Shown here: positions 3,819 through 53,828 of the stretch, in pieces
How the letters are laid out: each line of letters opens with the position of its first letter
Numbering within the stretch: position 1 is the first letter of the stretch
Assembly: GCA_036252695.1 (NCBI GenBank)
Contig: GCA_036252695.1_4122.1
Source of the DNA: a phage
Strand: one strand, 5' to 3'
Length of the DNA: 64,000 bases
The notes under the pieces: model-generated
What the model was told of the DNA's origin: nothing
What the model saw: only the letters and a program-made list of their open reading frames with translations
Database searches by the model: none
Program-made: the position numbers and the translations under genes

Positions 3819-4547
3819 ATGCTTGACCGTATCCGTTTCGCTACAGAGATGGCGAATGAATTAAACATGGCAAATTTCCAAATGTTAACATCAGTAATGG
3901 CTGAACATGCATGTGCTTATTCTGTAAGTGGTGTGCAGTGTGGTCAGGAGAATATGTTAGCAGATGTTTATAGTGAAGTACAAAGTAAGCAATATAGTGT
4001 AAAGACATATAAGGATAAGTTTGTTAGTCTTTATATGAACGAAGATATTGCCGAAGACCGCAAATTCACTGATTTTATTATTGAACGCCGAGTATCAGGT
4101 GTATCTAATCCTAATGCATCAAGCGATGAAGTTTTTGCAGAAGTACTGAAAGATATATACGAAAATGAATTAAAAAGTAAGAATCATTACAATGTACGTG
4201 AAACTAACACAGTGCTCTTGGGATATGATGAAGACGAAGAATACTATTATTTTCGTATGACTGAAGTTCCTTTTGAATACAAATCTCCATATACAACTAC
4301 AGTGAAAGAATTTACTGAAAAAAGTAAAAACTTTATGAAGCATGAAGGAAATCGTTGTAGTATAAATGGTTATGACGAAAATGGCATTCACATTTATGAA
4401 TGGGTTCACCCAAATTGTCAGACATACACTCGTTGCTTGAAAAAACGTTATAATTTAGAAGAGCATGAATCATTCTATTTTAAAGTTAAGAAGCAAGGTT
4501 ATACTCGCCCCGCCGATTCTGAATTGATGGGTATGATATATTTCTAA
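3819..4547 (+). CDS. hypothetical protein
   Basis: ATG at 3819 preceded by AAGGAG with 8-nt spacing; ~243 aa, downstream of the promoter. Confidence 0.6.
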   Translation: MLDRIRFATEMANELNMANFQMLTSVMAEHACAYSVSGVQCGQENMLADVYSEVQSKQYSVKTYKDKFVSLYMNEDIAEDRKFTDFIIERRVSGVSNPNASSDEVFAEVLKDIYENELKSKNHYNVRETNTVLLGYDEDEEYYYFRMTEVPFEYKSPYTTTVKEFTEKSKNFMKHEGNRCSINGYDENGIHIYEWVHPNCQTYTRCLKKRYNLEEHESFYFKVKKQGYTRPADSELMGMIYF

Positions 4548-4557
4548 GGAAACTTCT

Positions 4558-4839
4558 ATGGATTTTTATCTACACACATGGACATACGAACAATATATTA
4601 CATTATATCTTGAAATTATTAACACAGAACCTAGGTGTGGTTGTAGGTTCGCAGATATCATAAAAGAGTATGCTGACGAGTTCGAGTTTGTGTATCTTGG
4701 GTCTGATATATTTGTAAAAAGTGTAGGTAAAACCGGACGAATCACTGATATAGATTACGACACTGTTAGTGTGAATTTCTATGTTGATTTTCCTGATGCT
4801 GGCGTTGATGGTGTATATTGTCTTTATGAAATAATTTAA
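4558..4839 (+). CDS. hypothetical protein
   Basis: 93-aa ORF followed by a terminator. Confidence 0.5.
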   Translation: MDFYLHTWTYEQYITLYLEIINTEPRCGCRFADIIKEYADEFEFVYLGSDIFVKSVGKTGRITDIDYDTVSVNFYVDFPDAGVDGVYCLYEII

Positions 4840-4845
4840 ATTCTT

Positions 4846-4870
4846 AGGCCAGCGTTTGCTGGTCTTTTTT
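4846..4870 (+). terminator. rho-independent terminator
   Basis: ggccagc-gttt-gctggtc hairpin followed by a T-run. Confidence 0.5.
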
Positions 4871-4883
4871 CGCAGGTACAAAG

Positions 4884-5186
4884 ATGTTCAGTATAGATTT
4901 AATTAACAGTACTATCAAAATGTTGGCTGATTTGGTGAGACAATCCAATGGAACTTTATATCCATCAATGTATAAAATGTTTGACCGATACATCAAGGAT
5001 TGTAACATATCATTATATGGACTTGCTGTTGATATAGACGATTACTATGGAATTAATACTTCATATAAAACAGGAATTTTAATTGGTATTAATATAAAGA
5101 TGGGGTATTTACCTTATTACTGTATAGGATTACCAGATAATACTTTTGTAGAATATCCAGCCAGTACTATTAAATTAAGAGGATAA
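4884..5186 (+). CDS. hypothetical protein
   Basis: 100-aa ORF. Confidence 0.5.
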   Translation: MFSIDLINSTIKMLADLVRQSNGTLYPSMYKMFDRYIKDCNISLYGLAVDIDDYYGINTSYKTGILIGINIKMGYLPYYCIGLPDNTFVEYPASTIKLRG

Positions 5187-5193
5187 AACTAAA

Positions 5194-5772
5194 ATGAATG
5201 TATTAGAATTAAGTACTAAGCTGATTAGTATGCGTAATGAGTGGTACGATTGGTTTTATAATGGTACTGATATGGATTTTTCAAAATATCCATTTATGGA
5301 ATCAGGATGTGATGCAAGATACCGCTGGTTGAGCAAAGATTGTTCTGGTTTACATATTCTAGTTGACGATAGTGGTCAGGGAATTATAAAAGATTTACTT
5401 CAAGTTGAACAACTCGTCCATGATAATTGGTGTGATAACGATCCATACCTTGGAAATATGATTTATGTAAGTGAAGATGATTGCATATTCGTTATCCAGC
5501 GTCATGGTAATTCTATGTTTTATGTAGCAGATAGCAGTACTCCAGAAGGTGCAGCAGCCGATGGACTTATGCCTAAGATTGATATATTGGAATTTGGATT
5601 ACCTGAGCACTTCCAGATTAGTACTTTATACGATATTCCACCACTTGAGTTCTTTGAAGAATTTAAATTGTACTACAATGATCTTCAAAAATTGAGTACT
5701 GATCGACGCATTGAAATAACTGTTAAGTACATGGACGGAACGAAATTAACTGATACGGGGATAGAATTTTGA
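5194..5772 (+). CDS. hypothetical protein
   Basis: 192-aa ORF preceded by a GGA-rich RBS. Confidence 0.55.
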   Translation: MNVLELSTKLISMRNEWYDWFYNGTDMDFSKYPFMESGCDARYRWLSKDCSGLHILVDDSGQGIIKDLLQVEQLVHDNWCDNDPYLGNMIYVSEDDCIFVIQRHGNSMFYVADSSTPEGAAADGLMPKIDILEFGLPEHFQISTLYDIPPLEFFEEFKLYYNDLQKLSTDRRIEITVKYMDGTKLTDTGIEF

Positions 5773-6458
5773 TTAAAGATTTAGATAGAATTTTATATGT
5801 ACTAAGGGGTGTAATTACATTACATCCACAAATCAATCGAATTGAAAGTACATTTCAGTTGGAGTCAAGAGAAACTCCATATTCACATATATCAAATGTA
5901 GTTGGTTCACTCAGTACTGAAGACTCGTCTTACGATATTTGTGTATGTGAAGTACAACCAAGTTCGGATCTTGGATTTGCTATTTTTGATAAAGATCAAA
6001 ATCTCATTAGTATGTTTCAGTGCAATAATCCTTTTTGGAAAACATGCCTGTATCCAGAGTGGGCTATGCTTGATCCAACCAAGAGTACCATTAAAGTTTA
6101 TGACTCTAAAAATGATGAAGTCGTTATTGATTTGGATGAGTCAATGTCAGAGGAAGAACACTTTCAGCTAATGATGATGCGTGCTATGCCGGAATACAAT
6201 GCAATGATTAACACTGTGCAATACATTAAGGATACCATGCCAGCGTTGCGTACACATGAGTTTTGTCATCCGGTATTGTATGAACATCTAGATTTAGACT
6301 TCAGTACTATTAAATTTAAAGATAGTGTTAAAAAATATATTCAAGAGAATGTTAAATTTGATTTTATTAGTACTATGAACAATAATCCAAAAACTAATTT
6401 TAGGCATCAGTACAATGAATCTTTGTCTAATGGACGTGATACCAGTTGGTGGAAATAA
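5769..6458 (+). CDS. hypothetical protein
   Basis: 229-aa ORF with stop-start overlap. Confidence 0.55.
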   Translation: MIKDLDRILYVLRGVITLHPQINRIESTFQLESRETPYSHISNVVGSLSTEDSSYDICVCEVQPSSDLGFAIFDKDQNLISMFQCNNPFWKTCLYPEWAMLDPTKSTIKVYDSKNDEVVIDLDESMSEEEHFQLMMMRAMPEYNAMINTVQYIKDTMPALRTHEFCHPVLYEHLDLDFSTIKFKDSVKKYIQENVKFDFISTMNNNPKTNFRHQYNESLSNGRDTSWWK

Positions 6459-6459
6459 T

Positions 6460-6723
6460 ATGAATATTCAAGATAGATTACAATTACTGTACACACTTGA
6501 ACAGGCTGCTTATGATCTTGTTCGAAAAATCTCAGATGAACTACCTAAAGGAACTAAAGTTCGTGTACGTGAGATGAATTATTTTTCTGGAGTAATTGAA
6601 GAACAAGTACTAACAGTGAATAAAGTAACATACTATGAATCTGAGTTGTCTATTCAGTGTGAATCTGATGATGGATTAATATCATATTATGGAACTGATG
6701 TAGATATAGAGGTAATAAAATGA
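6460..6723 (+). CDS. hypothetical protein, small paralog family
   Basis: Internal ATG at 6460 just after the upstream stop; LPKGTKVRVREMNYF motif like other small paralogs. Confidence 0.45.
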   Translation: MNIQDRLQLLYTLEQAAYDLVRKISDELPKGTKVRVREMNYFSGVIEEQVLTVNKVTYYESELSIQCESDDGLISYYGTDVDIEVIK

Positions 6724-7862
6724 CCCTTTTGCAAATATATGAAGATTTAATGCACTTATGTAATACAAACGATGCATTCTTTTATGTGGATCATAAAAGT
6801 CCTGCTGGTGGCACGTATCGTGTATTCAGTTATCGTCTAGCATCATACACTGATTTCATGCAACCAAATGCGTTGGAAACCCGTGGCTCTATGTGGGAAA
6901 TTGATGAAGAAGGTGAAATGATACGTTGTGCAGCACGTACAATGAAAAAGTTCTTCAATGCTTACGAGAATCCTGCTACAATGTTCCCTGCTAACACCAC
7001 ATGCGATGACATTGCGGTAGTGATGCCTAAGTTGGATGGTTCGATTATCAGTACTTACCGTGATAATGATGGTGAGATTCGTTGTAAATCACATACTGCA
7101 TTGTATTCTGACCATGCGATTAACAGTACTCGACTTATTAACGAGAACCAGAATTTGTATCAGTACATCGACGAAGCGGAACGTTTAGGTTACACAGTTA
7201 ATATGGAGTATACAAGCCCAGAGTACCGAATTGTATTACCATATCAGGTAGAACAACTGTTTGTACTGAACGTTCGTCATCGTGTGAGTGGTGAGTTGCT
7301 ATGTGGTAAAGCACTACGTGATAAGTTTCCATGTCTTGCACAGTACAGTACTAATATGACTGGAAAAGATATTCATCACACTTTTCCGGTACGAAATACC
7401 TTCCGTGAAAGCGTGGAGGAAGTTCATAAAATGCTTGATATTGAGGGTTTTGTGTGCATCCTAAATAATGGGACAATGTGTAAAATAAAGACTGACTGGT
7501 ACAGTTCATTACATCTTACAAAAGATAGTATTATTATTGATTCTCATTTATATGAAGCAGTATTAAATGGTTCAAGTGATGATTTAAAACAATTGTTCAG
7601 TACTGATGAATATGCTATGCAAAAGATATTAAGAATGGAACAATTGGTATTTTCGTGCTATAATGCATTACAAGATGAAGTAGAAAGCTTCGTCAAGGAA
7701 CACAAGCACTTGGAGCGAAAGGAATTCGCAATGAAGGTTCAGGAGTGTTTAACTAATGAACTGAATCGTCAGGGCTTGGCCTTTGCAATGTATAACAATA
7801 AGAAAGTTGATTACAAAGAGACTCTTATAAAATACATGAAAATTGTACTAAAGGATTTTTAG
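6720..7862 (+). CDS. rnlA: RNA ligase 1 (T4 gp63-like)
   Basis: 380-aa protein colinear with T4 Rnl1 as recalled: FFYVDHKS..GGTYRVFSY, ETRGSMWEI and the nucleotidyl-lysine motif MPKLDGS. Confidence 0.8.
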   Translation: MTLLQIYEDLMHLCNTNDAFFYVDHKSPAGGTYRVFSYRLASYTDFMQPNALETRGSMWEIDEEGEMIRCAARTMKKFFNAYENPATMFPANTTCDDIAVVMPKLDGSIISTYRDNDGEIRCKSHTALYSDHAINSTRLINENQNLYQYIDEAERLGYTVNMEYTSPEYRIVLPYQVEQLFVLNVRHRVSGELLCGKALRDKFPCLAQYSTNMTGKDIHHTFPVRNTFRESVEEVHKMLDIEGFVCILNNGTMCKIKTDWYSSLHLTKDSIIIDSHLYEAVLNGSSDDLKQLFSTDEYAMQKILRMEQLVFSCYNALQDEVESFVKEHKHLERKEFAMKVQECLTNELNRQGLAFAMYNNKKVDYKETLIKYMKIVLKDF

Positions 7863-19013: not shown

Positions 19014-19709
19014 ATGGTTGAACAATTCATGTTTGGTGGTTATGCTAATGGCGAAGTACGTAACATTTCTATTCCTTACGTAGTTGAGAAAGTTAATGGT
19101 TCAGAACGTACATATGATCTAGCATCTCGTATGATGCAAGACCGTATCATTTTCCTTGATACTGATTTCAATGATCAAATGGCACATATCATCAAACAAC
19201 AATTGGTATGGTTAGACTCACAAGGTGATTCCCCTATTACATTCTACATTAGTTCACCGGGTGGTTCAGTACACGCAGGTTTGGGTATTGCAGATGTTGC
19301 TAAGTCTTGTATTTCGCCAATTCGCACTGTAGTAATGGGCTATGCAGCATCAATGGGTTGCTATACACAATCTGTTATTGGGACTAAAGGTTTCCGTTTA
19401 GGTGGTAAACGCTCATACTTCATGTGTCACCAAGTAAGTTCTGGTACACAAGGTCTAATTACAGACCAGAAGATTTCCCTACAACATTCTGATGCACTGA
19501 ATACATTGTTGACCAAAGAAATTGCAGAAGCTGTAGGTGTATCACATGAACAATTACTAAAAGATGCTGACCGCGATTTGTGGTTAAATGCAGAAGAAGC
19601 ACTTGAATATGGTGAACATGGTTTCATTGATGGTATTATTCTTGGTCCACGTAACGAAGAAGGCAAGTACTTAGTTAAGCGTCGCGGTGGTGTAGAAGAG
19701 TGGGTGTAA
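19014..19709 (+). CDS. clpP: ClpP-family serine protease
   Basis: SSPGG, GYAASMG (Ser), MCHQV (His) and DADRD (Asp) in ClpP order; colinear with bacterial ClpP. Confidence 0.85.
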   Translation: MVEQFMFGGYANGEVRNISIPYVVEKVNGSERTYDLASRMMQDRIIFLDTDFNDQMAHIIKQQLVWLDSQGDSPITFYISSPGGSVHAGLGIADVAKSCISPIRTVVMGYAASMGCYTQSVIGTKGFRLGGKRSYFMCHQVSSGTQGLITDQKISLQHSDALNTLLTKEIAEAVGVSHEQLLKDADRDLWLNAEEALEYGEHGFIDGIILGPRNEEGKYLVKRRGGVEEWV

Positions 19710-21667: not shown

Positions 21668-22103
21668 GGAAAGTAAATGTATTTCACAAAAAGTTGGTTG
21701 TGTTATTGTTAAAAATAACCGAGTATTGAGTACTGGATACAATGGTACTCCATCAAAACAACCAAATTGTTGTGATGTGAATCAACACTTAGTCAATGAT
21801 GGACGTTTTCAAGACTGGGTTAGTGATGAAGCAAAGCATGAACATCATGAGTGGAGTAATATTCATGAAATCCATGCTGAAATGAACGCTTTACTCTATA
21901 GTTCTCCTACTGAACGTCAAGGTGCTACTCTTTACACAACACTACAACCATGTTATACTTGTTCTAAGTTGATCGCAGGTAGTGGGATTTCACGTGTAAT
22001 TTATCTCAAAAATTATCCTCGTACACCACCAGAAGCTATTAAAGTACTGGAAGATGCTGGAATTATTGTTAATTGCATTTATGATAAGGGTCTTGATAAA
22101 TGA
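21624..22103 (+). CDS. cd: dCMP deaminase
   Basis: HAEMNA and PCYTCSK zinc-binding deaminase motifs; N-terminal ESKC; ATG at 21624 after GGAG. Confidence 0.8.
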   Translation: MKHTTWLKIAEVVAEESKCISQKVGCVIVKNNRVLSTGYNGTPSKQPNCCDVNQHLVNDGRFQDWVSDEAKHEHHEWSNIHEIHAEMNALLYSSPTERQGATLYTTLQPCYTCSKLIAGSGISRVIYLKNYPRTPPEAIKVLEDAGIIVNCIYDKGLDK

Positions 22104-22357
22104 CAGTAATAATTATTATTGCTTTTCTAATAACAGTGTTTTTTATTTTTATGTTATATATAGTTGCTATGGATGAACCTAATACTTCTTTTCGAAATTA
22201 TGAAGTTCGTTTTTCTGCACAAAATAATAAGTACTATATTGTAAACTGTATACACCGTAGTGAGAAAAGGGTAACAAGTAGATTTGGATTTACCATTTAT
22301 TATAAAGACCGAGTAGAAGCTGATATGATTTGTCAGAAGCTTAATACTGTAGAATAA
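22100..22357 (+). CDS. small membrane protein
   Basis: 85 aa with an N-terminal hydrophobic helix; ATGA overlap with cd. Confidence 0.5.
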   Translation: MTVIIIIAFLITVFFIFMLYIVAMDEPNTSFRNYEVRFSAQNNKYYIVNCIHRSEKRVTSRFGFTIYYKDRVEADMICQKLNTVE

Positions 22358-22385: not shown

Positions 22386-22763
22386 TTAACCAGGGAGGTT
22401 ACAATAATACAAATCCCAAGGGTGATATTTCATCGCACCAGTACTCAATTTAATTTTATGAAACTGGAATGATTCGGCAAATGCACTATCGTCAATCTTA
22501 ATACAAAAAGTGTTTTTGGCTAGAGTTGGTGCAATTTCCAATGCTGTTTTAGATGCATCTAATCTAATTTTATCTTTATCATAACTAGTGATAGTTACAA
22601 AACGATAAACATTAAAATCAGTATCAATGAGATCGTAAACACAACTAGAACGTTGATTAAAGATGTTCAAGTTATATTTCAATTCACCGTTTATATTAGC
22701 TGCGGTTACACAAAACCCGCCGATATTGAATGGTAGTTTACCTTGTGCTGCGATAGCTTTCAT
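22386..22763 (-). CDS. hypothetical protein (only minus-strand gene in the window)
   Basis: 125-aa ORF on the opposite strand with AAGGAAA RBS (minus strand); bidirectional terminator on one side, AT-rich promoter region on the other. Confidence 0.55.
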   Translation of the reverse strand: MKAIAAQGKLPFNIGGFCVTAANINGELKYNLNIFNQRSSCVYDLIDTDFNVYRFVTITSYDKDKIRLDASKTALEIAPTLAKNTFCIKIDDSAFAESFQFHKIKLSTGAMKYHPWDLYYCNLPG

Positions 22764-22833
22764 ATTTTATTTCCTTTTTTAAATATAAGTATGAAATATA
22801 TTTGTTTTTTACATCAGATGCACCATGAACTAG

Positions 22834-22862
22834 TTGACAAAACATCAGTGGTATGATATGAT
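22834..22862 (+). promoter_or_regulatory. sigma70-like promoter (TTGACA-17-TATGAT)
   Basis: Consensus -35 with 17-nt spacer in the divergent intergenic region. Confidence 0.45.
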
Positions 22863-22924
22863 CTGTTATAAACTGTACACCTTAAGTTTTATTTTTAAAA
22901 ATTTGAGTTAAGTACAGAAAAAGT

Positions 22925-22953
22925 TTGACTTAAGTGTTTAAGTACTATATTAT
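22925..22953 (+). promoter_or_regulatory. second sigma70-like promoter (TTGACT-17-TATTAT)
   Basis: Tandem to the previous promoter, about 35 nt upstream of the protease gene. Confidence 0.4.
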
Positions 22954-22988
22954 TTATATCTTCCTAAACAAAATTGAGGACTTGTTAT

Positions 22989-23597
22989 ATGAAAAGACTA
23001 TGGCTTGAAGTGATACAAGCAGCGATGTTTCTATTGTTAATAAATTTTCCAGCCAGTGCTGGTATTGAAAGTAAAAATGTGATAAAGTATAATCCTGAAA
23101 CCCGAAATGTATATTTCATATCAGATATTACAGATGGGTCACTCAAGAGAATGATAGAGTTGTATGATAAAGAACACTATGATACCATCACAATTACATC
23201 TCCTGGTGGTGATTTTGATGCAGGTATTCGAATGGCAAACTTTGTTAGAGACAATGGGATAAATTTAATTGTTTCTAGGTATTGCAATTCAGCATGTACT
23301 GTGGTATTCTTTAGTGTATCTCCCGAAAAGCGATATATGACAAATCGCTCAGTACTGGGTCTTCATAACATTTCGATTAAAAGTAATGTTACTGATGGTG
23401 ATAATTCATTTGTGTCTGTAAGACAGCTATCAACTTTTACCGAAGAAATGGCAACAAAGGTAGGTTTCCTTTTTTCACTATATGCAGCAAATGGAATCCC
23501 ACCAGAAGTTCTATTTAGAGTTAGTCGTTCTCGTGGTGAAGATGTTGTAATATTAACAAAACCAGAACTGGTTTTTTACGGTTCAGTCAAACAATAA
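22989..23597 (+). CDS. ClpP-like (SPGG-motif) serine protease with a signal peptide
   Basis: ATG at 22989 after TGAGGA; hydrophobic N-terminus ending ASAG; ITSPGGDFDAG core and CNSAC / LGLHN at the positions of the ClpP Ser and His. Confidence 0.55.
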   Translation: MKRLWLEVIQAAMFLLLINFPASAGIESKNVIKYNPETRNVYFISDITDGSLKRMIELYDKEHYDTITITSPGGDFDAGIRMANFVRDNGINLIVSRYCNSACTVVFFSVSPEKRYMTNRSVLGLHNISIKSNVTDGDNSFVSVRQLSTFTEEMATKVGFLFSLYAANGIPPEVLFRVSRSRGEDVVILTKPELVFYGSVKQ

Positions 23598-23667: not shown

Positions 23668-23928
23668 ATGACAAACATCCAAAACTTGACATCTATTATT
23701 TTTTATGCTACTGTAGTAATGTATGCTACAGTTATTTTTCTAACAGTTTTCATTTACAAAGATTATCGTAATGGCTTTATTGATCCAACTACAATGAAGT
23801 TCAATTCAAAATTCGAAGCAATAATTTATTATGTACTATCAACTTCATACTTGGTGTGCCTAATGTTGTTAGGAGCACTAATTTATATCTTATACACAAC
23901 ATTATTTGCAATTGGAGCTATTTTATGA
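23668..23928 (+). CDS. small membrane protein
   Basis: 86 aa with several hydrophobic helices. Confidence 0.5.
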   Translation: MTNIQNLTSIIFYATVVMYATVIFLTVFIYKDYRNGFIDPTTMKFNSKFEAIIYYVLSTSYLVCLMLLGALIYILYTTLFAIGAIL

Positions 23929-24518
23929 CCTGTATTATTGCACACACTGACGGAGTAAGTTCTTTTATTGCTGGGGATAAGTTAGGAAGCAATGGATTTA
24001 CAAAAACTGTTCAAACTGAGCCAAAGGTATTCGAGAAAGAATTTATCAAGTTACATGATGATGGACTAACTAGAACTAAAGAAGTAATGGCATTGGGTTA
24101 TACTACATCATTTCGTATGGGTCAGTTGTTAAATTATAACCTTAATTTACCTGAACAAGATGCTAGTCAAACATTTTCACAATATTTGGTTCTTAAAGTT
24201 ATTCCAATCATTCGTCAAATGTTTAAAGAAGAATGGGGTGCACGAGATGCATCACAAGATGTAGGTGGTGGACAATTTATCATTCTCCACAATCATACAA
24301 TCTATGAAGTTCAAGAAGACTTTTCAGTACTACAACCTAAAACAAGAATTACCGCAGTAGGTAGTGGGACATATCATGCAATTGCAGCAATGCAAGCATA
24401 TATTGAAGTTGAGAACGAATCTAAAAAACCACTACACGAACGTATCAAATCAATTTTTAAAATTGTTAGTGATAATGTAACAAGCGTAAGCGAAGAGTTT
24501 GATGTTTTAAAATATTAA
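23925..24518 (+). CDS. HslV-like Ntn-hydrolase (proteasome beta-subunit fold) peptidase
   Basis: Internal ATG with ATGA overlap gives M-T-CIIAHTDGVSSFIAGD (Thr2 nucleophile, like HslV TTIVSV..VIAGDG); later ITAVGSGTYHAIAA resembles HslV IAIGSGGPYAQAA. Confidence 0.55.
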   Translation: MTCIIAHTDGVSSFIAGDKLGSNGFTKTVQTEPKVFEKEFIKLHDDGLTRTKEVMALGYTTSFRMGQLLNYNLNLPEQDASQTFSQYLVLKVIPIIRQMFKEEWGARDASQDVGGGQFIILHNHTIYEVQEDFSVLQPKTRITAVGSGTYHAIAAMQAYIEVENESKKPLHERIKSIFKIVSDNVTSVSEEFDVLKY

Positions 24519-24545: not shown

Positions 24546-24746
24546 ATGATGGCATACACAATTTATGAATGGGTTTTGAGTTTTTTTATAGTTTTTTCTA
24601 TTGTTGTAATTTATAACAATGCTAAATGCTTATATAGGGACTTGAAATCCAATGGTTATCACAAAGATAATAATTTTATGTATGCCTATCATATTGGAAT
24701 CATTCTGTTATTATCAATATATTTAATTGTTTTTTATAAGGATTGA
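24546..24746 (+). CDS. small membrane protein
   Basis: 66 aa with two hydrophobic helices. Confidence 0.45.
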   Translation: MMAYTIYEWVLSFFIVFSIVVIYNNAKCLYRDLKSNGYHKDNNFMYAYHIGIILLLSIYLIVFYKD

Positions 24747-24748
24747 AT

Positions 24749-25501
24749 ATGATATCAGAAAAATTTATAAGCAATGAAGGTAAAAAGCGATTACTGATTA
24801 TATCAGGTGCAGGACTTTCTGTTGAAAGTGGTATGGAACCTTTTCGATTTGATGATGGTTTGTGGGATACATTTAAAATTAATGATGTATGTAACATTGC
24901 TAGTTTAACTACAAAATATCATGTTGTTCATTCTTTCTATAATACATTACGTGTAAAATTGGGACAATGCGAACCAAATGCAATGCATTATTTTATAAAA
25001 TCGTTAGAAGATCAATATGGTGATTGCTTCCTTCATATGACTTCTAACATGGACGATCTTTATACTCGTATTGGTGGTCATGAGCTTAAACTTCATGGAA
25101 ACTTGTGTGAAGTTATTGAAAATTATAGTATCAATTCTGATGATTATAATGTTATTAACTGCGGATACGAACCATACATACCAAAACATGATGTTTTTGC
25201 TAAACCAAATGTAGTAATGATTGGAGAATATCATCGTTATGTTGATGGTATACGCTTACCAATTTACGAAGAACGAAATAATGTGTTGAAATCTCTTAAT
25301 GAAAATGATACAGTTATTGTAATTGGTAGTAGCGATACAGTACTGGTATGGTCGAGATTAGCAGCAGCATTACCATGTTATAGTGTTAATGTTAACATTC
25401 GTAAAAATGATAATGATTTTTTGTTTAATGAAAAAGTTATCAAGCCAGCAACCAAAGCAATACCACATCTAGAGACTATAATTAAGGAACGTATGAAATG
25501 A
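24749..25501 (+). CDS. Sir2-family NAD-dependent deacylase (CobB-type sirtuin)
   Basis: ISGAGLSVESGMEPFRFDDGLW NAD-binding motif; PNAMH..HMTSNMDDL (TQNID-like) and catalytic LHG colinear with E. coli CobB as recalled; ATG at 24749 after AAGGA. Confidence 0.75.
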   Translation: MISEKFISNEGKKRLLIISGAGLSVESGMEPFRFDDGLWDTFKINDVCNIASLTTKYHVVHSFYNTLRVKLGQCEPNAMHYFIKSLEDQYGDCFLHMTSNMDDLYTRIGGHELKLHGNLCEVIENYSINSDDYNVINCGYEPYIPKHDVFAKPNVVMIGEYHRYVDGIRLPIYEERNNVLKSLNENDTVIVIGSSDTVLVWSRLAAALPCYSVNVNIRKNDNDFLFNEKVIKPATKAIPHLETIIKERMK

Positions 25502-26049
25502 GTGTTAAAGAAGTTCCCTTTGGTGAATATGGCTCACGTGCAAATTTTGTATTTTGTTATTTCTTTGCAAGAAAATGTAACCCTTACAAAAACTATGAGT
25601 TGAATGATATACCAGAAGTAAATTTAGTTTTACTACAATTACGATGGGATGGTCTTCTTGGTGGATGTGGTGGAACCGTAGAAAGTACTGATATCTCACT
25701 AGAAGATGCGTTGCGTCGTGAAGTTCAAGAAGAAATGGATTACAATATTTTTGTTTCCCATCTTCGACCACTCAAAACTTTTGAAATTTACCCAGGTGCA
25801 AACAGTCACAGTTTTAGCTATGAAGTAACCTATGACGAGTTGAAACACATTAGAGATGGATACACTAATGCTAAACATGCAAGTGCAGAAGTTGCTGGTG
25901 TAAATTTATGTCATATTTCTCGTTATTCTAAGGGACAAAATCGAGAAGCGGGATATAATAATCTTATGACACAGAACTTCATCGGTACAGCAAGACAAGA
26001 ATTGGAGTATCTGGTTCAAAAAGAAAACTTACTAATTAGTTATCTATAG
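25498..26049 (+). CDS. Nudix-like hydrolase
   Basis: Nudix-box-like GGTVEST..LRREVQEEMDY segment (spacing slightly non-canonical); ATGA overlap with the sirtuin gene. Confidence 0.5.
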   Translation: MSVKEVPFGEYGSRANFVFCYFFARKCNPYKNYELNDIPEVNLVLLQLRWDGLLGGCGGTVESTDISLEDALRREVQEEMDYNIFVSHLRPLKTFEIYPGANSHSFSYEVTYDELKHIRDGYTNAKHASAEVAGVNLCHISRYSKGQNREAGYNNLMTQNFIGTARQELEYLVQKENLLISYL

Positions 26050-26738: not shown

Positions 26739-28178
26739 ATGAAAAAATATACAATTGACACAAATGTACTACTATCTGACCCTAATGCATCTATTGCTTT
26801 TGATGGTGCTGCAATCATTCTACCATTTACAGTACTGGAAGAATTGGATTCAATTAAGAGTCGTAATGTAGATGTTTCACGCGATGCTCGTGTTGCTATT
26901 CGTAACATTGAAGCAATTATTGCAGATGCATCACATGATGAGATTAGTAGTACTGGTGTTAATATTGCTGATGTTCATACCAATATGAATCCTGATAGCA
27001 AATTGTTTGTTATTACAAACGAAGAAGCTGAAGCACTAATTCGTACTAAAGGTTCAGAAGAGAAAGTTCAAACCCTTCTCAAAAGCACAGTACCTGATGA
27101 TAAAATCATTCTGGTAGCTTTAGCAACAGAATCAGTACTGGTAACTCGTGATATCAACATGCGTATCAAAGCACTAAGTTATGGTGTCGAGGTACAAGAT
27201 TATCGCCATGATATTGTTATTGGTGATAGTGATTTGATTCACATTGGTCAACACCATTTGGAAATTAATTTTTGGGAAGTATATAGCAACTTAACCAATA
27301 CTAATATTCAATCCGAACAAGTTGGTCGTCGTTTGTATCATTACATTTCTAAAAGCTTGATTGAACATTTGCTTCCACAAAATCTATGCATCGGTGATTA
27401 TCTATATGATGATGCTGACGTATTATTTGTGTACGAAGGACAATCAGCAATTGAGGAAGATGATGGAACACTAACACCAGAAGATATTTTGGTATTCCAA
27501 GACATTGGACAATCAGTGGCTTTACGTGCTAAAGTATGGGATATTAAAGCAAAGAATATCCAACAAGCACTCGCCATCAACAGTATTCTCGATCCTGATG
27601 TACATCTAACAGTACTGCTAGGTTCTGCTGGTACTGGTAAAACACTAATTACAATTGCTACTGCATTAGAATTAGTACTGGAAAAACGTAAATACGACCG
27701 AATCATCTTCTCTAAAACTCAAGACTCACAGTTTGAAGATATTGGTTTCTTGCCAGGTTCAGAAGCAGAAAAAGTGATTCCATTCTGTGGAGCCGCGATT
27801 GATGCGTTAGAGTTTCTTCATAAAGATGATGCCAACCCACAAGGTAGTATTGAAGAGATTATGAAACGTAATGTTATTCAATTTAAAGCACTAAACTTTG
27901 TACGTGGACGTTCATTCACCAACACTATTCTAGTAGTTGATGAATTCCAAAACATTACACCTGCACAAGCAAAAACCATCTTGACACGAGCAGGGTTAAA
28001 CTGTAAAGTAGTAATTATGGGTAACTTGAGTCAGATTGACAGTAAGTTTATTAGTCCTGTTAACAGTGGTTTGACATATGTAACTGAGAAGTTTAAAGAC
28101 TGGGCAGGTTGTCGTGTCATCGAACTAGAAGGTGTTGTTCGTTCACCACTGGCTGAATTTGCTGAAGAAAATATGTAA
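26739..28178 (+). CDS. phoH: PIN-PhoH (PhoH2-like) ATPase
   Basis: N-terminal PIN-like region (YTIDTNVLL) fused to a PhoH-type NTPase with Walker A GSAGTGKT and DEFQN Walker B. Confidence 0.75.
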   Translation: MKKYTIDTNVLLSDPNASIAFDGAAIILPFTVLEELDSIKSRNVDVSRDARVAIRNIEAIIADASHDEISSTGVNIADVHTNMNPDSKLFVITNEEAEALIRTKGSEEKVQTLLKSTVPDDKIILVALATESVLVTRDINMRIKALSYGVEVQDYRHDIVIGDSDLIHIGQHHLEINFWEVYSNLTNTNIQSEQVGRRLYHYISKSLIEHLLPQNLCIGDYLYDDADVLFVYEGQSAIEEDDGTLTPEDILVFQDIGQSVALRAKVWDIKAKNIQQALAINSILDPDVHLTVLLGSAGTGKTLITIATALELVLEKRKYDRIIFSKTQDSQFEDIGFLPGSEAEKVIPFCGAAIDALEFLHKDDANPQGSIEEIMKRNVIQFKALNFVRGRSFTNTILVVDEFQNITPAQAKTILTRAGLNCKVVIMGNLSQIDSKFISPVNSGLTYVTEKFKDWAGCRVIELEGVVRSPLAEFAEENM

Positions 28179-28435: not shown

Positions 28436-28539
28436 TTCATTTGAAGCAATATTGTGGAGTTCTTAATAAATACTTTTATAAGAATAATAATACTTTTTAT
28501 TAAATTAAAAAGAACTCCATGTGTTATTTCAGTTTTTCG

Positions 28540-28661: not shown

Positions 28662-29219
28662 ATGTTTTTTGACCAAACATTTACGTTGTATCACGATTCT
28701 GGTAAAGTTGAGATTGTAGACGATCTACTTCAATACATTGCTGACCATCAAGGGATAGATCGTTTCCACAGTAAGATGAAATTTGATTTAGCAGAATTCA
28801 ACAAAAAGAATCGTGAAACTTTTTGGAAGAACCGTTTCTATTACGAATTGTTCCCAGAAGAGTTTGTGGGTTATTATCTTTGTACTGAAAAAGGATTACT
28901 TGTATCTCCTGATTTACTTATGGGTGAATACATGATACTCTATAATGAGTACTGGGAACATAAACGTAAAGCTCGTGATACGGAATGGCGACATAAGCGT
29001 TCGTATATGTACAAACATAACCACTCCCGATACAAGCGTCCTAAGACTCAACAAGAGCGTCGTATGGCTTGTGCAGTACTGAAGGATGAGGGGGAACCTG
29101 ATATACGTGGAAGACGTAAGATGCGTTCATTACCATCGTATTGGGACGATATCAGAACAAGACATAGTACTGGCTGGAAATACAGTACTAAACGTAAACA
29201 TCAATACAAAGGGAGCTAA
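28662..29219 (+). CDS. hypothetical basic protein
   Basis: 185 aa, Arg/Lys-rich C-terminal half; AAGGAG RBS. Confidence 0.55.
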   Translation: MFFDQTFTLYHDSGKVEIVDDLLQYIADHQGIDRFHSKMKFDLAEFNKKNRETFWKNRFYYELFPEEFVGYYLCTEKGLLVSPDLLMGEYMILYNEYWEHKRKARDTEWRHKRSYMYKHNHSRYKRPKTQQERRMACAVLKDEGEPDIRGRRKMRSLPSYWDDIRTRHSTGWKYSTKRKHQYKGS

Positions 29220-37877: not shown

Positions 37878-37885
37878 TATAAATA
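37878..37885 (+). promoter_or_regulatory. T4-type late promoter box TATAAATA
   Basis: Exact TATAAATA 34 nt upstream of the first fibre-like gene; the only clear copy found by eye in intergenic DNA. Confidence 0.5.
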
Positions 37886-37919: not shown

Positions 37920-40616
37920 ATGTCAAAGAAAATATATGGTGGCTTGGATGTCACACATAATGTGACAGTTAATGGTAAAAGAACAATACAAGGTATCAAT
38001 GATCAAGTATTTGATGCTAATGGCAATATGGAGCTAGATACTTATTCAAGAGATGAAGTACTAGATATCGTCAGTATGATGCCAATTTCCCATTATGGGT
38101 CACAAAACTATCTTCCTGCTGGTGTATCTGGTGATTTCAATGGTGCATCTGAAAACCAGTCCCAACGTAGAAATAAAATTTTATTAGAAAACGATGGTAC
38201 ACTCGTATTATTACGTAGTGGTACAAACGGTAGTGTTGAGGGATTATATTATTCATATTTGGCTAACGCATTATCAGTTGATGACATGAGCCGTACAATT
38301 AACACCAGTCGTCAATACAAGCCTGGTTTTTTCGGTTCAAATCGCGTCGCAATTGGCTTATACAATACTGATCCAAATATTTTACTCGGTAGATATGTAG
38401 ACACTTCTAACAGTACTAATGGATTGTTTATTTCTATTACTAATGGTACATTAGATGATAAATTACATACTGGTTTTTTTGTAAATCAAGCAGATATTTG
38501 CCCTGAAGGTGGTATAGAATTTGCAATGATGGCTGAAGATGGTTCAATCTATGTCTTTAGTGTTCTTAATGAAAATAACCAACTACAGTTAGTTGTTGTC
38601 CGAGTTGTATATAATATTAGCAATGGAACATATACGGCAACTCGTATTACAGGATGGACTACAAAAACATTCTATAATACAACTTATTCTGCACAGAATA
38701 ACATGGTTATTACTAATCAAGTAACTTCAACTAATATAGCAGATAAGCCTTATGTGTATGTACCACAAAACCTACGTGGTATTGGGATTTATATGACATC
38801 CATTGATTTGTATGTTGCACAGCAACCAGGAACACAGAACTTTCGTTTTAGAATGAATGGTGATGCATGGTTTACAATGGCGACATATAATGCCCGACCA
38901 CAACATAGCTACAGCTTTGCATTTAATATGAGTACTAAACAATGCACCCTAGACGCTGGGAATGACATAGGTTCATATCAAGCACCATTGGTTATAACCA
39001 ATACTGGTTCTGCATTAGTGCCTACAGGTAACGTTTTAAATAATGATCCATTATATAATCATGCTAATGCAAGAAACATTTATAGTTCTTATTTTTACTT
39101 AAGTTCAGGTGAAGCTTTTTGTACTGTGTGTCCAAACTTAGCAGAACCATTACTTATGCAAAAAGCAAAGTTTCCTATACAAATTGTTTATAGTATGATT
39201 AACGTTCGTGCAGTACAATCAACTGATTTTAAAGGTGGAGTTGTTAGACCATCCTTTGGTTCAGCAGTTGGTTCATTTATTAATGGTGTGGAGTTGTTAC
39301 CAGATAATAGTACTAAACAATATTCACGTGCGTCTGGTAGTGGTGGGTTTAGACCATCATATGCAGTTCATAAAAGTACTCCTAATTTTACATTTAAATC
39401 ATTATCTTTAGGAACCATACAAGGTTATGAACCTACAACTGAACGTGGTTATGTAGATGATAATGCCAATAATAGAATTTTCATTAGTAGTATTTCAGGT
39501 TCAACTGTAACAACTAATGGCGGTATTTTTATGGTTGGTCAACGTTATTCACAATCATTTTCATATGATAAAAACTTAAATGGTACTGGTGTTATTAGTG
39601 TTACACAATCAGTTCTAGATAACTTTAGAAATACAGAATATGCTAAAGTTCTAAGTGACTGGAACTTATCTTCACAAGCTTATCGTGATATGACATTATT
39701 TGTTCCACAACAAACTGACATTCCGGCTTTTGTTATGTTGAGTACTATAACAAATGACTATAAAAACTATATTAGAATTGCTGAAGTTAACGTTAATACT
39801 AGAGTTGGAAATATAACATCTATTACCTTTAAGCGTTTAGTACTAGAAAATACATATGGTGAAAACTTTACACCTAATGGTAATGGTTCGATTGCATCTT
39901 CTTCTGTTGGGTTAACAATTTATGATGGTGGTTCATTCTACTTCATTGGTGGTTCTGACCCATTAACACATCCAACAATAGGAAATACAGCAACTCATCA
40001 ATTTAGAGCATATGTAACTAAATCAACTGCACAATTTACAAGTTTTGTTATTACTGGTTCTCATGCCAGTTATGAACAAGGAAGACAACCCACTGCGTTG
40101 CCTGGTATTGGATTTGGTATTTTTGATCCACTGGATTATACAAATAAAATGTCATTTCAAAAATATGGAACAACGATAGCCGACTATAATAACTGGACTC
40201 CACAAGGTAGCCCAATTAACGTAGTATCACAAGACGTTGCTCAAGGGTTTATTGTTTATTTTACAGAGGAAACACCAGTTATACTATCAGGTAAGTCTTT
40301 TACACTACCAGTTTCAAATATTGATTTGAGAACTATAAAATCTAATCCAGCAAATACAACATTTTATGTATATGTTAAATTAGAACAAGGGTTGGCAAAC
40401 TACTACATAACTACTGATGTTATTTCCGAAACAGGAACAACTGCATATAATATTTTTTGGATAGGTACTATTCAAACTAACGCAATTCAAATCGAAACTA
40501 TTAATATACAAAAACGTTCACGTTTAGATATATTTGGTGCTTCACTTGAATCAGCAGGTTCATCGTTCCCAGTTAGCTACGGTCTACCATCACAAACAGG
40601 AACCATAAACTGGTAA
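37920..40616 (+). CDS. putative tail fibre / receptor-binding protein (paralog A)
   Basis: 898 aa, Ser/Thr/Asn/Gly-rich; N-terminal, internal and C-terminal (GSSFPVSYGLPSQTGTINW) modules shared with the 939-aa ORF. Confidence 0.5.
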   Translation: MSKKIYGGLDVTHNVTVNGKRTIQGINDQVFDANGNMELDTYSRDEVLDIVSMMPISHYGSQNYLPAGVSGDFNGASENQSQRRNKILLENDGTLVLLRSGTNGSVEGLYYSYLANALSVDDMSRTINTSRQYKPGFFGSNRVAIGLYNTDPNILLGRYVDTSNSTNGLFISITNGTLDDKLHTGFFVNQADICPEGGIEFAMMAEDGSIYVFSVLNENNQLQLVVVRVVYNISNGTYTATRITGWTTKTFYNTTYSAQNNMVITNQVTSTNIADKPYVYVPQNLRGIGIYMTSIDLYVAQQPGTQNFRFRMNGDAWFTMATYNARPQHSYSFAFNMSTKQCTLDAGNDIGSYQAPLVITNTGSALVPTGNVLNNDPLYNHANARNIYSSYFYLSSGEAFCTVCPNLAEPLLMQKAKFPIQIVYSMINVRAVQSTDFKGGVVRPSFGSAVGSFINGVELLPDNSTKQYSRASGSGGFRPSYAVHKSTPNFTFKSLSLGTIQGYEPTTERGYVDDNANNRIFISSISGSTVTTNGGIFMVGQRYSQSFSYDKNLNGTGVISVTQSVLDNFRNTEYAKVLSDWNLSSQAYRDMTLFVPQQTDIPAFVMLSTITNDYKNYIRIAEVNVNTRVGNITSITFKRLVLENTYGENFTPNGNGSIASSSVGLTIYDGGSFYFIGGSDPLTHPTIGNTATHQFRAYVTKSTAQFTSFVITGSHASYEQGRQPTALPGIGFGIFDPLDYTNKMSFQKYGTTIADYNNWTPQGSPINVVSQDVAQGFIVYFTEETPVILSGKSFTLPVSNIDLRTIKSNPANTTFYVYVKLEQGLANYYITTDVISETGTTAYNIFWIGTIQTNAIQIETINIQKRSRLDIFGASLESAGSSFPVSYGLPSQTGTINW

Positions 40617-52822: not shown

Positions 52823-53455
52823 ATGAAATCGCATGAATTAGCAAAATTACTACTGTCTCAACCGAATCTAGACATTTATCATTATGATGCAGAGAGTGAC
52901 TTGCATTATCAGAATTTTGATAATAGATTAATGGTTACACCATCTGGTATTTTCACCACAGTAAAAACCACATTAGATTATGAAAATGTACTTACTCCAT
53001 ACCATACACCACTCTTGGGTCACGTCCAAATTTTCTTTAAGGATGGTACTATTACTCCAAAATTGGAGGGTTCACATATCCAAACTGTTCTTAACTTAGA
53101 ATATGGGTTGGTATTTAACATTCCTTATGAAAAGCCAATTATTTTATTAGGTAAAAATCAATCAACACAATTCACTAATCAACATGCTGTTTGTTATACA
53201 TCCGATGATATTGATTTCATTTCAGTACTGACAGAATATGATCCTAATACTTGGCACGAAACATGGGAAACTATGTCATATGATGAAGCAATTGAATGTG
53301 GTAAAAATTTAGCCAAAATGTTATTTCCACCGAAAAAAGAACTTTCACAAGAACAAAATGAATCATTTTCTAAAGATTTTCCTGATTCTGAATTCAATGT
53401 TAAAGTATCAACTACCAAAATTGGTGAATTTCTAAATGAAAATCAAAAAGATTAA
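52823..53455 (+). CDS. hypothetical protein (duplicate pair, copy 1)
   Basis: ATG at 52823 after GGAGAAA, downstream of the terminator; N-terminus MKSHELAKLLLSQPNLDIYHY parallels ORF 53825. Confidence 0.55.
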   Translation: MKSHELAKLLLSQPNLDIYHYDAESDLHYQNFDNRLMVTPSGIFTTVKTTLDYENVLTPYHTPLLGHVQIFFKDGTITPKLEGSHIQTVLNLEYGLVFNIPYEKPIILLGKNQSTQFTNQHAVCYTSDDIDFISVLTEYDPNTWHETWETMSYDEAIECGKNLAKMLFPPKKELSQEQNESFSKDFPDSEFNVKVSTTKIGEFLNENQKD

Positions 53456-53828
53456 ATTCCACCAGCATTGTTCTATACATGTCTGTGATGATTGTGGTAT
53501 ACAAATGAGTGATATTTATACAGTTTCCTGTAAAGGTTTCAAATTCACTCACGGTGAACCTGCATATTGTTATGGCACAGAAGAAGGTGATATCGAAGTA
53601 GTACTGAAAGAATTGTTCCAGTACTTGCAAAGTGTAGGTCATGATGTTACAATACCCACATATTATGAAGATGATTATGATGCACATGTAGAAGAAAATA
53701 CATATTATAATCAATTCGTTTATGGTAATGGTTTTATCACATACCTACATGAGAATGGTATTGGGGTAAAAACTAAGTACACCAGTGATGATTATGATGA
53801 TGATAATTCTATGGAGATTGTAGATTGA
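53436..53828 (+). CDS. hypothetical protein
   Basis: 130-aa ORF. Confidence 0.5.
   Translation: MKIKKIKFHQHCSIHVCDDCGIQMSDIYTVSCKGFKFTHGEPAYCYGTEEGDIEVVLKELFQYLQSVGHDVTIPTYYEDDYDAHVEENTYYNQFVYGNGFITYLHENGIGVKTKYTSDDYDDDNSMEIVD

Follow-up and report, generated by a model that had tools for sequence, protein, structure and literature searches.

A lone opposite-strand gene of an Asteriusvirus as a probable late transcription unit for a virion surface protein

The 64,000-nucleotide (nt) stretch of phage DNA considered here (GenBank assembly GCA_036252695.1, contig GCA_036252695.1_4122.1; hereafter the window) carries a single gene on its minus strand at 22386–22763, and both this gene and its association with the virion are already in the literature. 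The window is 99.8% identical in DNA sequence to genomes of PBECO4-type Asteriusvirus phages and 88.6% identical to 121Q; by its sequence, it belongs to Asteriusvirus and is a RaK2-like jumbo myovirus, the genomes of which are ~350 kb. The counterparts of the 125-amino acid (aa) gene are gp098 of PBECO4 and gp471 of 121Q, both annotated as 'virion structural protein', and gp347 of phAPEC6. The locus is the same in all three and the proteins are identical or 97% identical: 100% in at least 14 isolates, phAPEC6 included, and 96.8% in 121Q. The gene is present in all 22 Asteriusvirus records of the PBECO4/121Q type.

In the structural proteome of phAPEC6 (Table 1 of PMC7247149), gp347 was identified by mass spectrometry (MS) as a 14.10 kDa protein with 8 unique peptides and 75.2% sequence coverage; the molecular mass computed for the window protein is 14.11 kDa. 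This coverage is the highest among the 62 phAPEC6 virion proteins, ahead of the major capsid protein (74.9%) and the sheath (68.0%) (PMC7247149). CBB virions likewise yielded the homologue CBB_112 by MS (PMC5259590), and RaK2 gp496 is not among the MS-detected proteins listed in the main text of the RaK2 paper. The 125-aa product is probably abundant in the particle.

More distant counterparts are known from several other phages. RaK2 gp496, GAP32_111, CBB_112 and Munch_133 share the same N-terminal domain (N-domain) with 36–39% identity and occupy the same slot, on the same strand and next to the same kind of bidirectional terminator. These homologues are 212–303 aa in length with one or two Big_2 domains at the C-terminus, whereas the 125-aa protein stops at the linker. 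They have been labeled variously as 'major tail protein', 'immunoglobulin (Ig) domain protein' and 'invasin/intimin-like'. A second type, represented by phAPEC6 gp077, WPEC3_CDS194 and Serratia phage BF gp432 (phrog_10468, ~384 aa), also has the N-domain, with 31–34% identity, and is found in virions by MS. Its gene likewise stands alone on the opposite strand, preceded by ATAAATA at −32 to −38 and closed by a bidirectional terminator. It differs in having a C-terminal part of ~260 aa without a Pfam match and another locus, and it is present in more relatives.

The family may also be considered alongside Hoc of phage T4 and pb10 of phage T5. In outline, the logic of their design is alike, with a small capsid-binding module followed by one or more outward Ig-like domains. 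Both Hoc and pb10 are dispensable and expressed late. The likeness stops there, as no sequence or structural similarity of the anchor was found, the 125-aa member has no Ig-like domain, and capsid binding is putative in the present case. What is added here to the published record is that the 125-aa protein is the anchor-only member of a modular Ig-display family, that its locus is a slot of variable content, that a late-promoter motif upstream of it is otherwise purged, and that the domain has no solved structural relative.

The preliminary description of the window, made from the sequence alone, recognized no motif in the product. This remains true of Pfam, where no match was found at E ≤ 0.1, Ig-like domains included; it does not hold for PHROGs, where the protein matched phrog_33171 ('virion structural protein', E = 4.6e-88) and, at positions 3–125, phrog_10468 (384 positions, E = 2.5e-13). 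A single-sequence word-index search for homologues returned 2 proteins, and an alignment query was needed to reach the wider family. An exhaustive profile search of 1.84 billion representatives then identified 96 clusters with member lengths from 102 to 1859 aa. In essentially all of the clusters, the N-domain is located at residues 1 to ~122, and it is usually followed by one to seven or more Ig-like domains. Big_2 was present in 43 of 80 scanned members, and others had Big_1, Invasin_D3/D4 or other Ig-like domains. As examples, RaK2 gp496 (212 aa) has one Big_2 domain, GAP32_111 is 303 aa in length, A4_464 (722 aa) has seven Ig-like domains and a further member, P0026, has seven Big_2 domains.

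The residues that mark the ~120-aa N-domain (P11, G16, I34, Q37-R38-S39, D44-L45 and F86) are all found in the window protein. Its nearest relatives (66–68% identity) are 162, 312 and 538 aa in length and extend past a conserved LYYCN[IL]P linker. In contrast, the 125-aa protein ends with LYYCNLPG, one to two residues past the linker, and the terminator follows directly. Since it ends where its closest relatives continue into Ig-like domains, the 125-aa protein is, from its sequence, an N-terminal module standing by itself, in a family whose other members use it to tether Ig arrays. Domain-only forms of 113–141 aa recur independently in other lineages.

An AlphaFold2 (AF2) model calculated with 22 homologues (pLDDT = 81, pTM = 0.75) is composed mostly of β-structure with one helix. 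Residues 1–11 are disordered in the model, yet their conservation within the family is among the highest. A Foldseek search of the AF2 model against the PDB identified nothing at E ≤ 1e-3, and a search against BFVD returned the family itself and weak matches to uncharacterized Atu_ph07 proteins. Sequence searches of the PDB with phmmer and with hmmsearch and the family profile gave chance matches or none. No solved structure represents the ~120-aa N-domain.

Evidence for the time of expression comes from a T4-like late-promoter motif, TATAAATA, upstream of the gene. The CBB paper put forward ATAAATA, a motif similar to the T4 late TATAAATA, as the late promoter in both CBB and GAP32 (PMC5259590). 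A gp55-like sigma factor has been reported for CBB, and homologues of gp33 and gp45 were reported to be lacking there (PMC5259590). Within the window, TATAAATA occurs 3 times against an expected 13.3 ± 4.2, and ATAAATA is depleted about tenfold, with 4 occurrences against an expected 44.7 ± 6.2. Three of the four ATAAATA sites, at 22951(−), 28466(+), 37879(+) and 53513(−), are intergenic, although intergenic sequence makes up 6% of the window, and each of the three points at a downstream gene. The depletion looks like a genome-wide purging of a late-promoter signal.

Similar observations were made in 50 kb of the phAPEC6 structural region, where ATAAATA occurs 10 times against an expected 25.9 ± 4.2 and precedes the sheath gene, the first tube gene, gp245 and gp253 by 36–51 nt. 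The exact TATAAATA was expected before the main structural genes but was not found in these 50 kb; the working motif there is the shorter ATAAATA. The context of the motif at the phAPEC6 tube gene, GATAGATAAATAATATAAAG, closely resembles that upstream of the 125-aa gene, GAAGATATAAATAATATAGTAC. The late motif is also kept upstream of homologues in 121Q, A4, a metagenomic relative (L012), GAP32, WPEC3 and BF, and its distance to the start codon is 170 nt in A4, 187 nt in L012 and 281 nt in 121Q. As in the late units of T4, an exact TATAAATA stands upstream of the 125-aa gene in the correct orientation, a sequence-level likeness to T4-type late promoters; in T4, the motif lies a few tens of nt from the start codon, compared to 188 nt here. 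A promoter scan of 22764–22950 identified no σ70-like site on the minus strand. Taken from these signals, the 125-aa gene is apparently transcribed late from its own promoter.

At its other end, the gene is bounded by a hairpin. The stem is a perfect 12 bp, made up of six G/C-rich pairs and six A:U pairs, and a hairpin with a U-tract can be read on both strands. It fills the 28 nt between the convergent stop codons, overlapping the TAA of the plus-strand open reading frame (ORF) at 22355–22357 and ending 1 nt before the minus-strand stop codon (22386–22388). The calculated folding energies are −20.4 kcal/mol on the plus strand and −20.1 kcal/mol on the minus strand (z = −3.6 and −5.1), and none of 200 shuffled sequences folded as stably. 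A consensus terminator scanner missed the element because its maximal stem absorbs the T-run. Equivalent arrangements of an A-run, a GC-rich hairpin and a T-run are present at the same convergent junction in 121Q, RaK2, GAP32, Munch, A4, the metagenomic relative and WPEC3; the stems are kept and the loops vary.

With respect to layout, the preliminary description proved accurate. It had singled out the gene as the only one on its strand, and every other minus-strand ORF of at least 90 aa in the window is nested within a longer plus-strand ORF; in the RefSeq annotation of the equivalent 64 kb of PBECO4, gp098 is likewise the sole gene on its strand among ~115. The 12-bp palindromic terminator that it described as shared with the upstream plus-strand operon agrees with the sequence reading and with the comparison to shuffled sequences. 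The 225-bp divergent promoter region that it proposed is also present, spanning 22764–22988 with σ70-like promoters; its GC content of 26–30% is slightly lower than the ~31–36% of the neighboring genes. Finally, its view of an independently transcribed and insulated cassette is supported, at the level of sequence signals, by the terminator, the divergent promoter region and a promoter-like motif on the gene's own strand. The start context GGAAATAAAAT-ATG of the gene is found in 121Q as well.

The slot itself may be followed across genera by its flanking dCMP deaminase and small hydrophobic ORF. On this basis, the same slot is occupied on the opposite strand in RaK2, GAP32, Munch, A4 and the metagenomic L012, and at least four genera have a homologue in this slot and orientation. 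A comparison of presence and absence among relatives, which had been suggested at the outset, showed that the content of the slot differs, with 0, 1, 3 or 4 genes found. The A4 slot (L010 3001–6208) contains four opposite-strand genes, three of which are family members, and the L012 slot (4077–6974) contains three, encoding 637, 162 and 162 aa. In 121Q, a 43-aa 'hypothetical protein' encoded upstream of gp471 (gene 472, L002 4160–4291) begins with MGEPIAGQDQFPFTLGGYLVDG; judging from its sequence, it is what a deletion has left of another family member, namely the first ~25 residues. Phages of the WPEC3 type (L007 2978–3523) have lost the gene while the GGAGCC terminator and the divergent promoter module are kept, with ACATAAATAAT on the minus strand. 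By comparison of the sequences, the gene was removed there by a deletion that spared the promoter and terminator.

In addition to the slot, Asteriusvirus genomes have a paralogue at another locus. The gene phAPEC6 gp077 encodes 384 aa (42.88 kDa) with the same N-domain, and the product was detected in phAPEC6 virions with 10 peptides (PMC7247149). This gene, too, stands alone on the opposite strand; ATAAATA lies at −38, and the terminator is bidirectional, of the A-run/hairpin/T-run kind. A gp077-type paralogue was found in 61 records, and one or more family members are retained in each RaK2-like genome examined. The second place matched by tblastn in Asteriusvirus genomes is gp077; it is not phAPEC6 gp253, as nothing was found in 165–215 kb.

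Between the window and 121Q, the 125-aa gene differs at 20 synonymous and 4 non-synonymous positions, and the ratio of non-synonymous to synonymous rates (dN/dS) is 0.04. The corresponding ratio for the neighboring protease gene is 0.10. The GC content of the 125-aa gene is like that of its neighbors. The gene is native and constrained, as opposed to recently imported or in decay.

From these observations, the locus is probably a late transcription unit complete in itself that encodes a virion surface protein, and the 125-aa protein is most likely a late-expressed decoration or anchor protein. Late in infection, a phage-modified RNA polymerase would start at TATAAATA (22958–22951, minus strand), traverse a leader of ~180 nt and the ORF, and stop at the bidirectional hairpin. 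The opposite strand and the hairpin would together separate this late unit from the surrounding metabolic and protease genes, which would be driven by σ70. Through the N-domain, members of the family would dock onto the virion lattice, with a partner subunit engaged by the highly conserved N-terminal arm (MGKPIA..PFG), which is disordered in the monomer model. In the relatives, the Ig arrays would point away from the particle and act as weak adhesins, much as in Hoc or pb10. In the present phage, the slot would have been pared down to the anchor alone, probably as an abundant decoration or cement subunit, and the 384-aa paralogue gp077 would combine this anchor with another C-terminal part.

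The docking site is most probably the capsid. Three points favor this site: MS coverage is very high, Hoc and pb10 have the same anchor-plus-Ig design, and a family member is present in every RaK2-like genome examined. Cryo-electron microscopy (cryo-EM) of phAPEC6 (10 Å; PMC7247149) and of 121Q revealed an elongated decoration protein whose copy number equals that of the major capsid protein, and a protein or fiber anchor in the middle of every hexamer; neither has been assigned, and in both maps (~10 Å) the decoration densities remain without an assigned protein. It is possible, if tentative, that the N-domain is an unrecognized capsid-docking fold that explains one of the decoration densities of these T = 28 capsids, with the slot acting as a swappable display cassette; the candidate densities would be the lattice equal in copies to the major capsid protein or the fiber anchor at the hexamer center. 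The published capsid structure of phiKp24 is not relevant to this question, as phiKp24 is not among the phages with a homologue and the paper reports no decoration protein.

Several observations weigh against a late surface protein on the capsid. The coverage of gp347 in the MS data is not equivalent to a copy number, and the published records for gp347, gp098 and gp471 give neither a site on the virion nor a function. Without an Ig domain, the adhesin function of the relatives cannot apply to the 125-aa member. The distance of 188 nt from motif to start codon compares with 35–51 nt for the sheath, tube and gp077 genes, implying either a long leader or a different, unrecognized promoter. TATAAATA overlaps the −10 region of a plus-strand promoter, which could explain part of its conservation. 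Lastly, the loss of the gene in WPEC3-type phages indicates that it is dispensable, at least where the paralogue remains.

A serious alternative to the capsid, albeit a decidedly less likely one, is the tail. The N-domain may dock on the contractile tail at the sheath rings, the collar or as a distal decoration, where it would anchor or space the whiskers that give the tails of phAPEC6 and CBB a 'hairy' appearance. RefSeq labels the RaK2, GAP32 and CBB homologues as 'major tail protein', Ig-like domains occur on tail proteins too, cryo-EM of phAPEC6 showed unassigned decorations at two levels of the tail and fiber bases at three rings (PMC7247149), and the tail whiskers of CBB are of unknown gene origin (PMC5259590). 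The label, however, stems from Big_2, a domain that resembles the C-terminus of λ gpV and is absent from the 125-aa protein. The true tube proteins of this phage group are gp273c–275c (phrog_4542, phrog_13438), encoded beside the sheath gene in phAPEC6; thus, 'major tail protein' on the homologues reflects only the Big_2 domain. The AF2 model resembles no tube or sheath fold, and in particular no structural match to tube proteins of the λ gpV or T4 gp19 type was found. As a weaker argument, far fewer copies would be expected on the tail, which fits the top MS coverage less well. An internal location is improbable. A packaged head protein, held in an inner body or ejected, would be in keeping with a small and basic product (pI 8.3) that is probably abundant in virions, with the inner body of unknown composition in phAPEC6 and 121Q, and with proteases as neighboring genes. 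Against this, the family carries long Ig-like or invasin-like arrays that are surface-exposed on phages, at least as Fraser et al. (2006) are cited in PMC5259590, and the MS peptides cover 75% of the full-length sequence with no sign of propeptide removal.

The remaining two explanations would deny the gene a role in the particle, and both appear very improbable. The preliminary description had proposed a moron-like cassette for exclusion, defense or anti-defense, in which case presence in the virion would be incidental. An own promoter and terminator around a single gene in opposite orientation can indeed be read from the sequence, the slot varies in content with the gene absent from WPEC3-type phages, and the protein has no Pfam domain. 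The other features expected of a moron, namely foreign composition, sporadic presence in close relatives and a function unrelated to the virion or to lytic development, were not found, no search of PADLOC being made. Instead, the product has the highest coverage in the virion proteome, its same-slot homologues in at least four genera are Ig-bearing structural proteins, its promoter motif is of the late type common to the sheath and tube genes, and a native composition is combined with strong purifying selection. The phage is virulent, and the classical logic of a moron as a fitness factor of the lysogen does not apply. The proposal had also been staked on the gene not holding the same position with a core function in all relatives; as it turned out, the position is kept in most relatives, if not in all, and the role is structural, which largely goes against the proposal. 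Similarly, the gene might be a truncated pseudogene, functionless after losing an Ig-bearing C-terminus, given that its closest relatives are longer, that 121Q keeps a 43-codon piece of another member just upstream and that WPEC3-type phages lost the gene entirely. Decay is difficult to reconcile with the low dN/dS, with a protein that is unchanged across many isolates and is incorporated into virions, with the independent recurrence of domain-only forms, and with a truncation placed exactly at the domain linker with a terminator directly after it. A late-expressed surface protein on the capsid accordingly remains the preferred reading, and the features of the locus on which it draws are listed in Table 1.

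Table 1. Coordinates of the 125-aa gene, its putative transcription signals and its neighbors in the window.
Feature	Position	Strand	Remarks
Coding sequence, 125 aa, 14.1 kDa, pI 8.3	22386–22763	minus	ATG start; phrog_33171/phrog_10468 family, stand-alone N-terminal domain
Shine-Dalgarno-like AAGGAAA	22770–22776	minus	6–8 nt 5' of ATG (AAGGA, 8 nt); read from sequence
Predicted 5' leader, ~180 nt	22764–22950	minus	From motif position; antisense to 22834–22862 promoter
T4-like late-promoter motif TATAAATA, context GATATAAATAATATAGTAC	22951–22958	minus	188 nt upstream of the 125-aa gene
Bidirectional intrinsic terminator A7-GGAGCC-GTAT-GGCTCC-T6	22356/7–22384	both	Read from sequence
σ70-like promoter TTGACT-17-TATTAT, for divergent ClpP-like protease operon	22925–22953	plus	Overlaps late motif by 3 nt, back-to-back
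Second σ70-like promoter TTGACA-17-TG-TATGAT, extended −10, 11/12 matches	22834–22862	plus	Inside minus-strand leader; near consensus
Convergent neighbor, 85-aa ORF, hydrophobic N-terminus, last in dCMP-deaminase run	22100–22357	plus	phrog_19937
Divergent neighbor, ClpP/NfeD-like protease (PBECO4 gp097)	22989–23597	plus	Pfam, PHROGs, PBECO4 annotation
Protease-to-PhoH cluster members	19014–19709, 22989–23597, 23856–24518, 24743–26049, 26739–28178		

The two σ70-like promoters of the divergent region differ in conservation. For the one that overlaps the late motif, both TTGAC and the −10 element are kept in 121Q, A4, L012 and WPEC3 (TTGAC-17-TAnnAT), while the second, at 22834–22862, is not conserved in 121Q. 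Given this second promoter, the plus- and minus-strand transcripts would overlap in antisense by ~75–110 nt, and transcriptional interference is possible.

Homologues of the 85-aa convergent ORF hold the same place in 121Q, GAP32, Munch, L012 and WPEC3. The protease-like cluster comprises a ClpP-like head maturation protease, the second ClpP/NfeD-like protease and an HslV-like peptidase; Sir2, a Nudt16-like NUDIX hydrolase and PhoH come next. The counterpart of the PhoH-like protein of the window (53.21 kDa) belongs to the reported virion proteome of phAPEC6. Searches of the window for tRNAs and Rfam elements gave no match.

Each of the other ATAAATA sites in the window has a setting of its own. 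The exact TATAAATA at 37878–37885(+) lies 35 nt upstream of an 898-aa ORF (37920–40616; phrog_3573, function unknown) that matches the phAPEC6 virion protein gp323c (98.7 kDa computed, 98.62 kDa published). From its sequence, this ORF is a second late structural gene inside a mostly non-structural region, in this case on the majority strand. The intergenic ATAAATA at 28466–28472(+) precedes a 185-aa ORF (28662–29219; PBECO4 gp089, hypothetical) by 190 nt, a leader as unusually long as that of the 125-aa gene. The only intragenic TATAAATA, at 53513–53520(−), is antisense within the plus-strand ORF 53436–53828; it may have survived by chance or may act as an antisense late promoter.

A number of database records touching on the family are irregular. 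CRJP21 labels the same 125-aa gene 'putative Sir2-like protein', and the 121Q record notes an 'Ig domain' where the sequence has none; these labels, along with 'major tail protein', appear to be mis-transferred. Several genes in the WPEC3 record are oddly labeled, among them a 40-aa 'Sir2-like protein' and a 114-aa 'portal protein', and the annotation there seems fragmented or over-called. A truncation or frameshift seems to affect A4_466, as the tblastn match extends beyond the annotated 65-aa coding sequence. In the 242-aa protein of Salmonella phage SD-6_S16, a gp077-type N-domain is intact and is followed by out-of-frame, low-complexity sequence, giving two tblastn pieces; the apparent frameshift is either a sequencing error or a natural inactivation. 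In phAPEC6, three consecutive genes, gp273c, gp274c and gp275c (L005 43644–46307), all match tail-tube PHROGs and all three products were detected in the virion, a tandem triplication of the tube gene.

As far as can be read from its signals, the cassette layout is real and conserved, and it serves late expression of a structural gene within a block of earlier genes rather than a defense payload. The gene is thereby removed from the list of defense and anti-defense candidates, and misleading annotation is corrected. It also provides an example of how a late structural gene can be embedded among earlier genes through a strand flip, a T4-like late motif that is otherwise purged, and a bidirectional terminator. 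Together with its AF2 model, gp347 is a named candidate for the decoration proteins that the cryo-EM studies of 121Q and phAPEC6 left unassigned. If the tentative proposal of a capsid-docking fold in a swappable cassette is true, RaK2-like phages would exchange, multiply (A4, L012), strip (PBECO4) or delete (WPEC3) an Ig-array payload while keeping a common socket, and the modular anchor domain could serve for the display of payloads on jumbo-phage particles.

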